Assembly (NCBI RefSeq): GCF_003334385.1
Contig: NZ_QOWN01000091.1
Length of the DNA: 3,746 bases
DNA from: Escherichia coli
Lineage (GTDB): Bacteria; Pseudomonadota; Gammaproteobacteria; Enterobacterales; Enterobacteriaceae
Strand: one strand, 5' to 3'
Shown: positions 1,153 through 2,025 of the stretch, piece by piece
How positions within the stretch are numbered: position 1 is the stretch's first letter
Layout: each line of letters starts with the position of its first letter
Position numbers and translations under genes: made by a program
Notes under the pieces: generated by a model
Databases searched by the model: none
The model's input: the letters and a program-made list of their open reading frames with translations, nothing else
Told to the model about the DNA's origin: nothing

Positions 1153-2025
1153 ATGAATCCGTCTGATGCCATTGAGGCAATTGAAAAACCGCTCTCCTCC
1201 CTGCCTTACTCACTTTCCCGTCACATCCTGGAACATCTGCGCAAACTCACCAGTCACGAACCCGTGATTGGCATTATGGGTAAAAGCGGGGCCGGTAAAT
1301 CCTCACTCTGTAATGCGCTGTTTCAGGGGGAGGTCACCCCGGTCAGTGATGTTCACGCCGGCACCCGGGAAGTGCGGCGCTTCCGTCTGAGTGGTCACGG
1401 TCACAGCATGGTTATCACTGACCTGCCCGGGGTGGGCGAGAGCCGGGACAGGGATGCAGAGTATGAAGCCCTGTACCGTGACATTCTGCCCGAACTGGAC
1501 CTGGTGCTGTGGCTGATTAAAGCCGATGACCGCGCCCTGTCTGTGGATGAGTATTTCTGGCGACACATCCTGCACCGGGGACATCAGCAGGTGCTGTTTG
1601 TGGTGACGCAGGCCGACAAAACGGAGCCCTGCCATGAATGGGATATGGCCGGCATTCAGCCTTCTCCCGCACAGGCACAGAACATTCGGGAGAAAACGGA
1701 GGCGGTATTCCGTCTGTTCCGGCCCGTACATCCGGTTGTTGCCGTATCGGCCCGCACCGGCTGGGAACTGGATACGCTGGTCAGTGCGCTAATGACAGCA
1801 CTTCCCGACCATGCCGCCAGTCCCCTGATGACCCGCCTGCAGGACGAGCTGCGCACGGAATCTGTCCGCGCTCAGGCCCGTGAACAGTTTACCGGTGCGG
1901 TGGACCGGATATTTGACACGGCGGAGAGCGTCTGTGTTGCCTCTGTTGCCCGTACGGTTCTGCGTGCCGTCCGTGACACGGTGGTCTCTGTTGCCCGCGC
2001 TGTATGGAACTGGATTTTCTTCTGA
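1153..2025 (+). CDS. yeeP: YeeP/YfjP/YkfA-family putative GTP-binding protein (P-loop GTPase, 50S ribosome-binding GTPase-like domain), apparently intact, about 290 aa
   Basis: ORF track 1114-2025 (+). Translation has Walker A/G1 GIMGKSGAGKSS, G3 DLPG and G4-like TQAD motifs. Preferred start is ATG 1153 (MNPSDAIE...) because GTG 1114 lies inside the upstream terminator hairpin. Position immediately upstream of flu matches the known yeeP-isrC-flu arrangement of CP4-44. Stop TGA at 2023-2025. Confidence 0.8.
   Translation: MNPSDAIEAIEKPLSSLPYSLSRHILEHLRKLTSHEPVIGIMGKSGAGKSSLCNALFQGEVTPVSDVHAGTREVRRFRLSGHGHSMVITDLPGVGESRDRDAEYEALYRDILPELDLVLWLIKADDRALSVDEYFWRHILHRGHQQVLFVVTQADKTEPCHEWDMAGIQPSPAQAQNIREKTEAVFRLFRPVHPVVAVSARTGWELDTLVSALMTALPDHAASPLMTRLQDELRTESVRAQAREQFTGAVDRIFDTAESVCVASVARTVLRAVRDTVVSVARAVWNWIFF

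Follow-up and report, generated by a model that had tools for sequence, protein, structure and literature searches.

What does a GTPase gene do between the defence genes of an Escherichia coli island and agn43, and is it Ag43 or the mobile element that it serves? The window that we analysed, a stretch of 3,746 nucleotides of E. coli DNA, carries such a gene. The question reaches beyond this copy: the gene family is among the most widespread uncharacterised ones in E. coli, and a known function would help to account for the conserved 'right arm' of P4-like and pathogenicity islands. A first-pass annotation had stated that the function of the family is not established, and indeed our full-text literature searches for yeeP, ykfA, yfjP and NgrB found no functional study. 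YkfA and YfjP go under the 'YfjP' subfamily of CDD and also under the last of these names; we found no data behind the latter, and it is an annotation label only. The literature returned by the searches consists of genome annotations, metabolic-engineering work in which yeeP served for integration, a promoter list from genomic SELEX and one uninformative deletion of yfjP. In the latter work (a preprint), persisters of the K-12 yfjP deletion woke no faster than those of a yfjR deletion, and the alpA mutant alone was followed up.

An intact and ordinary member of its family

The reading frame is unbroken from the ATG at 1153 to the TGA at 2023-2025 and is translated into 290 amino acids; in RefSeq this CDS of 873 nt is entered as 'GTPase family protein' (WP_001069760.1). 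Together these bear out the earlier description of an uninterrupted frame of about 290 codons. The copy in RM12761 differs at two nucleotides and at no amino acid. Homology reveals neither truncation nor fusion, since the product is colinear from end to end with K-12 YkfA and YfjP (287 aa; 50-51% identity) and with relatives of 291-306 aa (39-61% identity). A possible upstream start, GTG at 1114, was set aside because homologues and RefSeq begin at the ATG, and the extension would overlap the leader hairpin. The dominant cluster of the family is the 290-aa form, with 18,190 member sequences, and 158 cluster representatives match the window GTPase at E<1e-30. Against YkfA, YfjP and a further relative (P0007) full-length identity is 50-61%, with every family signature column present. 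These signatures are GK(T/S)GxGKSSLCNALF, CTR, DxPGxGES, DDRA, [N/S/T]QxDK and an amphipathic C-terminal helix in a protein of about 287-306 aa, and the window GTPase has all of them.

Table 1. The GTPase gene, its upstream elements and the parts of its product, in window positions
Feature	Position	Strand	Basis or remark
Promoter-like TTCAAA-N15-TATTAT, spacer TTCAGAnAnATATnAT	1060..1086	+	conserved intergenic block
Leader hairpin (stem 1098-1123), then U-run (1124-1136)	1098..1136	+	RNA fold, scan
YeeP-family GTPase CDS	1153..2025	+	290 aa + stop
Two N-terminal helices, residues 3-14 and 19-34	1159..1254	+	DSSP on AlphaFold2 model
G1 / P-loop GKSGAGKS, residues 43-50	1279..1302	+	sequence (GKSGAGKSS to residue 51, nt 1305)
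G2 / switch I, T71-R72, family motif CTR	1363..1368	+	nearly invariant in family alignment
G3 / switch II DLPGVGE, residues 90-96 (DLPG 90-93 = nt 1420-1431)	1420..1440	+	alignment
G4 TQADK, residues 152-156 (TQAD 152-155 = nt 1606-1617)	1606..1620	+	alignment
G5 SAR, residues 199-201	1747..1755	+	S199 nearly invariant in family alignment
C-terminal helical hairpin, helices 236-260 and 264-289	1858..2022	+	AlphaFold2 model

The G1, G3 and G4-like motifs, which the first-pass annotation had called complete, could each be located, and G2 (T71) and G5 (SAR) are present too. In an alignment of 47 family members G43, G46, G48, K49 and S50 of the P-loop are invariant, as are D90, P92 and G93 of G3 in the family alignment, with E96 nearly so; the G4 consensus of the family is [N/S/T]QxDK, where Gln replaces the usual Lys. 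The AlphaFold2 model (pLDDT 93.9, pTM 0.91) has a Ras-like G domain with two helices ahead of it and two behind it, shows at residues 61-70 the dip in pLDDT that is typical of switch I, and places G5 after the last strand of the G domain. The N-terminal helix region is present ahead of the G domain throughout the family alignment. The Pfam MMR_HSR1 match (4.1e-14) stops at residue 151, just ahead of G4. With G1 to G5 in the canonical order and a Ras-like alpha/beta fold, the protein belongs to the TRAFAC-class Ras-like P-loop GTPases.

Could this be a decaying neutral passenger, whose frame is open by chance? K-12 yeeP and ypjI are indeed truncated, and the databases hold many fragmentary entries. 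K-12 yeeP (b1999) is, as had been claimed, annotated as a pseudogene, of 426 nt; its homology to the window begins only at about position 1473, so that G1-G3 are deleted and a 5'-truncated remnant is left. However, dN/dS among the E. coli copies is 0.06-0.18 over a dS of 0.06-0.13, the G motifs are invariant across relatives of 30-60% identity, and a near-full-length copy (at least 80% of the gene covered) is found in 4072 of the 5426 complete E. coli genomes, or about 75%, with a median of two per genome. We find a neutral passenger hardly credible. The product of the gene at 1153-2025 is an intact P-loop GTPase of 290 aa that belongs to the YkfA/YfjP/YeeP family and is maintained by selection, and of this identity and integrity we are nearly certain.

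The same count bears on the suggestion that an intact copy makes a reasonable target for functional study. The copy is intact, but intactness is the rule, and K-12 itself retains two intact paralogues, YkfA in CP4-6 and YfjP in CP4-57. The gene is already annotated and common, and the copy in the window is an ordinary one, with thousands of identical annotated copies.

Neighbourhood, carriers and promoter

In a locus with 99.9% nucleotide identity to the window (L001), the gene order is GTPase, agn43, yeeR, IrmA, DUF905, DUF932, antirestriction, JAB, DUF987, YeeU and CbtA. The GTPase thus heads the DUF932-antirestriction-RadC-DUF987-CbeA/CbtA array of P4-like islands, and parallel arrays are present in other loci. 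The first-pass annotation had put the family at the head of the island, beside agn43 and toxin-antitoxin modules. The adjacency to agn43 and the toxin-antitoxin genes downstream are real; the position at the head of the island is not, since what the GTPase heads is the conserved right-hand array, directly after the island's variable defence-gene slot. The contents of this slot include CBASS, Gabija-like, type III restriction-modification and AbpAB/RnlAB systems. Adjacency to the slot has been counted in favour of a role in defence, yet it is expected of any backbone gene that flanks it.

Is the GTPase then an accessory factor of Ag43, acting in the regulation of phase variation, in autotransporter secretion or in surface display? 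The linkage in E. coli is tight and fixed: the 3' end of the GTPase gene, a spacer of 371 bp and the 5' end of agn43/cah are contiguous in at least 3413 genomes, and agn43/cah is the neighbour in five out of five YeeP-clade loci with annotation that we inspected. However, orthologues of 60% identity, paralogues of 50% identity and plasmid copies occur without agn43; those of Klebsiella and Yersinia head a DUF932-antirestriction-RadC-CbeA/CbtA array. The linkage, confirmed for E. coli, does not extend to Klebsiella, Yersinia or the plasmids, and it is a feature of the E. coli YeeP clade alone, which makes a function tied to Ag43 unlikely. Moreover, agn43 is equipped with a separate regulatory region, where three GATC sites and the IsrC/IS102 RNA are found. 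Ag43 of K-12 is functional and phase-variable even though yeeP of that strain lacks G1-G3, with the reservation that YkfA or YfjP may complement it. Taken as a specific proposal, an Ag43 accessory factor seems to us very improbable.

The GTPase is a cargo or backbone gene of P4-like integrative islands, of small Col-type plasmids and of large conjugative plasmids. One relative is the near-sole cargo of a 4.8 kb Col156 plasmid, and others reside on a 5.9 kb ColE1-like plasmid and a 5.1 kb Aeromonas plasmid. A tblastn search of 50,697 phage records returned no relative at E<=1e-6, and PHROGs gave weak matches only (best 8.3e-8), all to families of unknown function.

Among the loci and plasmids compared, no conserved partner gene was supported. 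Several candidates were considered and rejected. The 838-aa gene after agn43, a possible dynamin partner, is full-length YeeR, a membrane protein without a P-loop. The upstream ORFs of 305 and 286 aa in two other loci (L014 and L006) are only marginally similar, with 21% identity at an E of about 1e-4 in a tiny database, and the window has neither; no relationship links them to the EcsC and 144-aa ORFs of the 5.9-kb plasmid. As to fusion partners, ten of the longer members were examined with NCBIfam, and two of these, P0041 (618 aa) and P0066 (700 aa), with Pfam as well; all that emerged was an N-terminus with weak likeness to kinases and a Gly-zipper at the C-terminus.

The promoter-like element upstream of the gene is the sole intergenic block that is conserved among the YeeP, yfjP, ykfA, K. 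aerogenes and Y. ruckeri copies; its spacer is invariant among the paralogues and, in the loci examined, occurs only before the starts of GTPase-type genes, including the ypjI remnant. A simple consensus scan missed the element because it covered spacers of 16-18 nt only, and this one has 15 nt. Its position is that of the RpoD-bound promoter TTGAAA-15-TATCAT reported at ykfA and yfjPQ (PMC3946193).

The U-run that follows the leader hairpin ends 16 nt ahead of the start codon. The hairpin folds with -19.8 kcal/mol and is terminator-like by scan, and each of 19 leader copies, folded individually, gave a hairpin rich in GC with a U-rich stretch behind it. With the hairpin taken in one fixed register, 71% of cells in a MAFFT alignment are paired and the covariation score was reached in 2 of 500 shuffles; after covariance-model realignment of 28 copies the figures are 68% and 41 of 500. 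In both cases the bulge positions vary by lineage, and for this reason our argument for the hairpin rests on the individual folds and on hairpin replacement: the leaders of yfjP, ykfA and ypjI have a different hairpin sequence in the same place. The structure looks like an intrinsic terminator or attenuator. Judging from the conserved intergenic sequence, the GTPase gene is served by a conserved promoter of its own, with a terminator-like hairpin in the leader behind it, and its expression would probably be gated by read-through of this leader terminator. Such an arrangement would account for the blank outcome of deletion screens in the laboratory. A link of the leader to AlpA-type antitermination was also considered and dropped, since the promoter-spacer motif is absent at intA and elsewhere in the islands.

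The window GTPase thus shares with YkfA and YfjP the G motifs, the AVRxxVVSVARAVW C-terminal helix, the promoter-leader cassette and the position at the head of the array. The YeeP clade differs from them in the hairpin sequence of its leader and in the insertion of agn43/cah (with yeeR and others) directly downstream.

It may be asked whether the GTPase is autonomous at all, or rather a component of island establishment or maintenance that works with DUF932, antirestriction (ArdB/KlcA-like), RadC-JAB and CbeA/CbtA, for instance while the island is being transferred or once it has reached a new host. In E. coli, Klebsiella, Yersinia and pNDM-CIT alike, the co-directional array always begins with the GTPase gene; the conserved promoter and leader suggest co-regulation of the array; and yfjP-yfjQ is listed as a single operon with a shared promoter (PMC3946193). 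However, relatives exist without these genes on plasmids of 4.8-5.9 kb and in unrelated chromosomal contexts, and in the E. coli YeeP clade agn43, yeeR and others split the GTPase from the remaining array. We regard a maintenance module of this kind as unlikely.

The C-terminal helix and the proposed function

Between the window GTPase and its paralogues, the C-terminal hairpin is the most conserved part outside the G motifs. The tail had been described as amphipathic or membrane-associating. Its amphipathic character is confirmed: residues 258-290 (ESVCVASVARTVLRAVRDTVVSVARAVWNWIFF) include a last helix that terminates in W-N-W-I-F-F, and the highest hydrophobic moment of the protein (0.71) belongs to the 18 residues from residue 267 onwards. 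Analysis of hydrophobicity over the whole protein gave no segment of transmembrane grade. At least two aromatic residues are found among the last eight in 36 of 61 full-length family representatives, where 7.6 would be expected by chance; aromatic-tipped amphipathic C-termini occur family-wide, with Gly-zipper or hydrophobic tails instead in some members. By its sequence the helix looks like a membrane anchor. It may also be, given its very high pLDDT, that the last helix sits buried in a helical bundle and is not free for the membrane.

Our proposal, held tentatively and with rather less than even confidence, is that the GTPase is self-sufficient and peripheral to the membrane, that it dimerises when it binds nucleotide, and that it works for the mobile element and not for Ag43. 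It would act alone, in keeping with the copies on small plasmids and the lack of a conserved partner gene, as do the GTPases of the IRG, GIMAP/Toc and dynamin-like kinds, its closest likenesses along the whole protein. The C-terminal helix would hold it at the cytoplasmic face of the inner membrane. GTP binding would lead to dimerisation or oligomerisation of the G domains and so to stimulated hydrolysis, an idea drawn only from the nearest full-length structural relatives. A membrane-associated and dimerisation-activated mechanism comes, in our estimate, close to an even chance. The GTPase would act at the envelope on behalf of the element, for example in exclusion of, or defence against, incoming phage or DNA, or in protection of the membrane. 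A role in defence or exclusion as such we hold to be doubtful.

The predicted fold close to IRG and dynamin-like GTPases, the anchor-like helix and the occurrence as lone cargo of 5-kb plasmids make the gene tractable by experiment and suggest that this one gene confers a phenotype, with a possible link to eukaryotic immune GTPases. Stated in its strongest form, YeeP, YkfA and YfjP would be a stripped-down bacterial counterpart of the eukaryotic IRG, GIMAP and dynamin-like immune proteins, a single-gene exclusion or defence factor of islands and small plasmids that acts at the membrane, is silenced by a promoter-proximal terminator and is induced by antitermination on a challenge to the element or the cell. 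We consider this form improbable.

Comparison with known GTPase systems

In sequence and fold of the G domain the nearest relatives are Era, EngB (YihA) and Der, with a hydrophobic residue after DxxG and not the catalytic Gln, and the G2 motif, TR[D/E], is Era-like. A ribosome-associated GTPase of this type, which would attach to one of the ribosomal subunits and influence either assembly or translation, for instance under stress, therefore has to be weighed. However, the Era and EngB matches span the G domain alone and are far under the curated cut-offs: 51.8 against 237 bits for NF000908 and 36.8 against 116 for TIGR00436 (both Era), and 38.5 against 124.45 bits for TIGR03598 (EngB). The Era matches end at about residue 223, at profile positions 5-173 of 291 with the KH part unmatched, and in structure EngB is matched over 156-165 residues, all of them in the G domain; the GTPase has neither a KH nor another RNA-binding domain. 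Its P-loop, GKxGxGKSS like that of AIG1, Toc and IRG proteins, lacks the Asn that marks the K+-dependent Era/MnmE group. It further differs from Era, EngB and Der in its extra terminal helices and in its place on mobile elements, outside the core genes, and membrane GTPases are a better fit both for the helices that flank the G domain and for the C-termini, whether amphipathic or with a Gly-zipper. A ribosomal role is quite unlikely in our opinion.

Among the 47 family members, Pfam at E<=0.001 finds AIG1 in 37, Dynamin_N in 37 and IIGP in 16. Bacterial dynamin-like proteins and mitofusins (LeoA, LeoBC of Eleos, BDLP, IniA, MFN2) run to 550-800 aa, are built of neck, trunk and paddle and are usually paired or fused, whereas the window GTPase has 290 aa and no partner gene; in the YeeP-clade loci inspected there is no second GTPase gene next to it. 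PADLOC-DB 2.0 assigns it to no defence system. Its hits there are partial and confined to the G domain, LeoBC with 32 bits (a weak 1.7e-8) and LeoA with 19.7 bits, the others having E >1e-3; LeoBC and LeoA align residues 10-126 and 26-260, respectively, to the N-terminal part of profiles of 560-600 positions.

AIG1/GIMAP and Toc34 share the GKxGxGKSS context of the P-loop and have dimerisation-activated G domains, C-terminal helices and a membrane anchor of their own; the AIG1 match of the window GTPase has E=0.016, and that of the best family member 3.2e-12. These proteins are eukaryotic (or cyanobacterial) and have transmembrane anchors, where the window GTPase has an amphipathic helix. For such a helix the C-terminal targeting helices of MinD and FtsA offer a parallel, being likewise terminal and amphipathic, with an aromatic or hydrophobic end and comparable hydrophobic moments; the family tails ...LWGYFFG, ...VWNSIFG and ...KKLFGL resemble ...KRLFGG of MinD. 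MinD and FtsA themselves are ATPases with different folds, and the likeness would be one of sequence character only.

The best structural matches over the full length are to IRG and dynamin-superfamily proteins. Irga6/IIGP1, Irgb6 and Irgb10 top the Foldseek list over about 290 columns (TMq 0.54-0.58, E about 1e-9, identity 17-20%), followed by Era, Toc34 and GIMAP, and Pfam IIGP (PF05049) matches residues 24-99 of the window GTPase at E=0.017, with 4.7e-8 in the best family member. IRG proteins are larger: they have about 400 aa, their C-terminal helical domain is much more extensive, and they are targeted to membranes via N-terminal myristoylation. They are membrane-targeted, cooperative GTPases, which have a similar P-loop and DLPGxG context and share with the window GTPase the layout of N-terminal helices, G domain and C-terminal helices.

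The GTPase gene and its family

The reading frame, which the first-pass annotation had described as uninterrupted over about 290 codons, is so on listing and translation of the ORFs: it runs from an ATG to an in-frame stop and encodes 290 amino acids. The G1, G3 and G4-like motifs and the Ala/Val/Arg-rich tail noted at that stage are all present, together with G2 and G5 (see the table). From base 78 onward, the window matches many E. coli chromosomes at 99.8-99.9% identity. For E. coli O145:H28 RM12761, RefSeq has a CDS for exactly the same 873 nt, a 'GTPase family protein' (WP_001069760.1) with agn43 371 bp beyond it, and that copy differs from ours by 2 nt and by no amino acid. 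In homology comparison the ORF is neither truncated nor fused, aligning over its whole length with YkfA and YfjP of K-12 (287 aa, 50-51% identity). HMMER, run exhaustively on 1.84 billion cluster representatives, gave 158 at E<1e-30; those of full length have 286-330 aa and align from about residue 8 to 289, and the 290-aa form is the dominant cluster at 90% identity, comprising 18,190 members.

K-12 yeeP is indeed annotated as a pseudogene (426 nt). DNA alignment shows it to be shared with our gene solely from about window position 1473 on, thus its promoter, N-terminus and G1-G3 are lost. It is K-12's truncated copy that is the odd one out, not the intact GTPase. Out of 5426 complete E. coli genomes, 4539 match the gene, and in 4072 a single copy spans 80% or more of its length; per genome, the median is two places and the maximum eight. 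Since the exact protein is already in RefSeq and most complete E. coli genomes carry it, the observation is correct but ordinary. Neutral decay of the gene is disfavoured by its dN/dS, which is 0.00-0.18 in pairwise comparison of five E. coli copies (dS up to 0.13) and 0.06-0.18 in the nine pairs whose proteins are not identical. Judged by these sequences, it is a functional gene, kept under purifying selection.

In an alignment of 47 family members (28-61% identity), G43, G46, G48, K49, S50, N54, D90, P92 and G93 are invariant, as are Y104, Y108, D116, W120, R127 and P159. The consensus reads GKTGxGKSSLCNALFG ... CTR ... DxPGxGES ... LWVIKADDRA ... NQxDKxEP ... VSA, and the family G4 is [N/S/T]QxD, with Gln at the position where most GTPases carry Lys. 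The sole solid Pfam match of our protein is the generic MMR_HSR1 (4.1e-14), those to Dynamin_N, AIG1, IIGP and Septin being weak; when family members are scanned one by one at E<=0.001, AIG1 and Dynamin_N each match 37 of the 47 and IIGP 16. NCBIfam matches to Era, MnmE, Der, HydF and EngB are confined to the G domain and fall far under the curated cut-offs (e.g. Era, 51.8 vs 237 bits). A ribosome-associated role of the Era/EngB type is a rival explanation, and this G-domain similarity is its one line of support.

Coordinates of the gene, its motifs and neighbouring features
Sequence	Position	Feature
Window	1-100	First ~100 bases, matching the end of an IS4-family IS421-like element (92-93% identity)
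Window	100-1050	AT-rich stretch, ~1 kb, GC 34-39%
Window	1059-1152	Last 95 bp, the only part common to AT-rich and 305-aa-ORF versions
Window	1060-1086	Promoter-like TTCAAA-N15-TATTAT, spacer invariant
Window	1098-1123	GC-rich leader hairpin
Window	1124-1136	U-run, ending 16 nt before the ATG
Window	1153-2025 (+)	GTPase gene (ATG 1153, stop 2023-2025)
GTPase	residues 43-51	G1, GKSGAGKSS
GTPase	T71	G2, within CTR
GTPase	residues 90-93	G3, DLPG
GTPase	residues 152-155	G4-like, TQAD
GTPase	S199-A-R	G5
GTPase	residues 258-290	Ala/Val/Arg-rich tail
Window	2142-2378	Rfam IS102 RNA (72.7 bits), overlapping the agn43 regulatory region
Window	2144, 2163, 2176	Three GATC sites in the agn43 regulatory region
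Window	2338-2365	Strong hairpin and T-run just before the agn43 start
Window	2397-3215	agn43 frame, start to stop, broken at 3154-3163
L001 (near-identical locus)	25560-28076	838-aa YeeR, after agn43
L004 (K-12 CP4-57)	14621-14710, 22455-22545	Promoter-leader cassettes
L004 (K-12 CP4-57)	22455-22817	ypjI pseudogene
L006	9054-9914	286-aa ORF directly upstream of GTPase
L014	5999-6916	305-aa ORF directly upstream of GTPase
L015 (O157-type, Cah)	11199-14873	Genes for 794-aa dynamin family protein, RdcB-family protein and patatin-like phospholipase

Islands and small plasmids

The claim that the GTPase is found next to agn43 and toxin-antitoxin modules holds for the YeeP clade. All five loci of that clade whose annotation we examined have the agn43/cah junction; the linkage to agn43 is clade-specific. 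The 3' end of the GTPase gene, the spacer and the 5' end of agn43/cah are contiguous in at least 3413 genomes. In the locus nearly identical to the window (L001), yfjI on the opposite strand is followed by some 1.2 kb of non-coding, AT-rich sequence and the GTPase, and these by agn43, full-length yeeR, IrmA and DUF905 and, further on, by DUF932, antirestriction, RadC-JAB, DUF987, YeeU antitoxin and CbtA toxin genes. K-12 yfjP and ykfA have DUF932 genes directly after them. The 60%-identical orthologues of Klebsiella aerogenes and Yersinia ruckeri head an array of WYL, YfjS/YfjT, DUF932, antirestriction, RadC, DUF987, CbeA and CbtA genes, from which agn43 is absent, and remoter relatives lie in unrelated contexts. 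An Ag43-specific role is disfavoured, given orthologues and plasmid copies without agn43 and a functional Ag43 in K-12. A role inside the island's establishment module is another rival.

The variable slot directly upstream of the GTPase is a defence-gene hotspot, which holds AbpAB and RnlAB in K-12 CP4-57, an OLD-family nuclease and UvrD pair in L006, a type III restriction-modification system in L007 and a type II CBASS in the island copy of plasmid pNDM-CIT.

Family members occur on 70 plasmid records (tblastn). A ColE1-like plasmid of 5.88-5.89 kb, found in E. coli, Klebsiella and Salmonella, has an EcsC-family gene, a 144-aa ORF and the GTPase as its cargo; a 4.82 kb Col156 plasmid lists only rep, mobA, a 132-aa ORF and the GTPase; and in a 5.1 kb Aeromonas plasmid the GTPase follows ccdAB. 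On such small, mobilisable Col-type plasmids, which recur in E. coli, Klebsiella, Salmonella and Aeromonas, these GTPases (31-44% identity) are the chief cargo gene or the sole one, and they retain the aromatic amphipathic C-terminus. Among 50,697 phage records no family member was matched. Therefore, despite the 'cryptic prophage' label, this is an island and plasmid gene able to stand alone, which argues for a self-contained phenotype.

Several neighbouring features were observed alongside. The AT-rich stretch (GC in the GTPase gene is 58-62%) has no long ORF, and RefSeq relatives have no annotated gene there; other islands have a 305-aa ORF in its place. The ORFs directly upstream of GTPase genes of different clades in L014 and L006 show a marginal likeness (21% identity over 265 aa) and no NCBIfam match; their position may reflect an occasional partner gene or chance. 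The sequence shared with other islands begins only at base 78, and the first bases match the IS421-like end, so that an insertion sequence appears to abut the AT-rich region in the present genome. The agn43 frame is broken by one extra base and a T-to-G change within a poly-G run (AATGGGGGGGGACC in the window, AATGGGGGGTACC in the intact RM12761 agn43), which reflects either a real frameshift allele, possibly prone to slippage, or an error in sequencing a homopolymer. The IS102 RNA is the IsrC small RNA of K-12, and the GATC sites are the known Dam/OxyR phase-variation switch. The first 507 residues of K-12 YeeR (510 aa) match the 838-aa protein without a difference, so that K-12 YeeR appears C-terminally truncated; in the O157-type island the dynamin, RdcB and patatin-like genes follow the autotransporter in yeeR's place.

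A conserved promoter and leader

About 100 bp ahead of the start codon are the sole intergenic stretch conserved among five lineages. Its promoter-like motif has the same position as the RpoD-bound promoter TTGAAA-15-TATCAT reported for ykfA and yfjPQ (PMC3946193). When one genome per species was scanned for the pattern, the promoter-leader cassette turned up in about 20 further Enterobacterales species, and it is also present in L005, L017, L020 and L028-L055. A GC-rich hairpin with a U-rich stretch after it is predicted in 19 of 19 copies examined; the yfjP/ykfA/ypjI/L046 type has another hairpin sequence at the same place, and no Rfam family matches the cassette. With the pairing held to one register, 71% of cells pair in the MAFFT alignment (2 of 500 shuffles reach its covariation score) and 68% after 28 copies are realigned with a covariance model (41 of 500), bulges lying at different positions in different lineages. 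The leader has the look of a transcription attenuator or of a target for antitermination. Its layout, a promoter, a putative promoter-proximal intrinsic terminator and then the first gene, recalls targets of Q-type and AlpA-type antiterminators (PMC7969949).

The islands encode AlpA-family proteins. As the leader's factor AlpA is not supported, because the spacer motif is confined to GTPase-type gene starts and there is none at intA. The ypjI pseudogene of CP4-57, just upstream of the antirestriction gene yfjX/lfgA, is the N-terminal remnant of a further GTPase paralogue (MSNSEGW*SF*QTLSGLPQW...) and keeps the same promoter motif and leader hairpin.

Predicted fold and possible role

AlphaFold2 on the family alignment (pLDDT 93.9, pTM 0.91) predicts helices 3-14 and 19-34, a canonical G domain, and helices 236-260 and 264-289. 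In a Foldseek search of the PDB, the top places go to the immunity-related GTPases Irga6/IIGP1, Irgb6 and Irgb10 (E ~1e-9, TMq 0.54-0.58, ~290 columns), with Era, Toc34 and GIMAP next; against AFDB50 only the family itself is found, under labels including 'GTPase family protein', 'G domain-containing protein' and 'NgrB'. From these models, the protein looks like a pared-down relative of dimerisation-activated, membrane-associated GTPases.

The suggestion of an amphipathic tail is borne out by the 18-residue window from residue 267, which has the top hydrophobic moment of the protein (0.71); a membrane-spanning hydrophobic segment is found nowhere in it. AVRxxVVSVARAVW is the best-kept stretch outside the G motifs between 50%-identical paralogues. 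At least two aromatics lie within the last eight residues in 36 of 61 full-length representatives (7.6 expected by chance), and in 32 of them the C-terminal 18-mer ranks among the highest 2% of hydrophobic moments along its own protein; a few members have hydrophobic or glycine-zipper segments instead. The high pLDDT of the last helix is also compatible with burial in a helical bundle.

That the function is not established agrees with the literature searched, which holds no report of it and treats the family in genome annotations, yeeP as a neutral integration site and a promoter list. One preprint reports that deleting yfjP did not make cells wake from persistence any faster than deleting yfjR did; it went on with the alpA mutant alone. 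The family's function is a real and tractable question, for which the present copy makes nothing newly testable; the added value, in our opinion, lies in the IRG/dynamin-like fold assignment, the small-plasmid evidence for autonomy and the conserved, terminator-like leader.

This is an intact, selectively maintained GTPase with a defined family signature and a predicted fold, and a mobile-element cargo able to stand alone, with a conserved promoter and leader. We infer that it may dimerise in a nucleotide-dependent manner, would bind the membrane peripherally via its C-terminal helix, and could act at the envelope in conflicts of the mobile element with the host or incoming phage. By analogy, the tail pattern would fit an in-plane membrane anchor of the kind that MinD and FtsA have. 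Two preprints give background on defence by dynamin-like proteins (Eleos/LeoA-LeoBC, DynA) and on how it relates to GIMAPs (10.1101/2022.05.11.491447, 10.1101/2022.12.12.520048).
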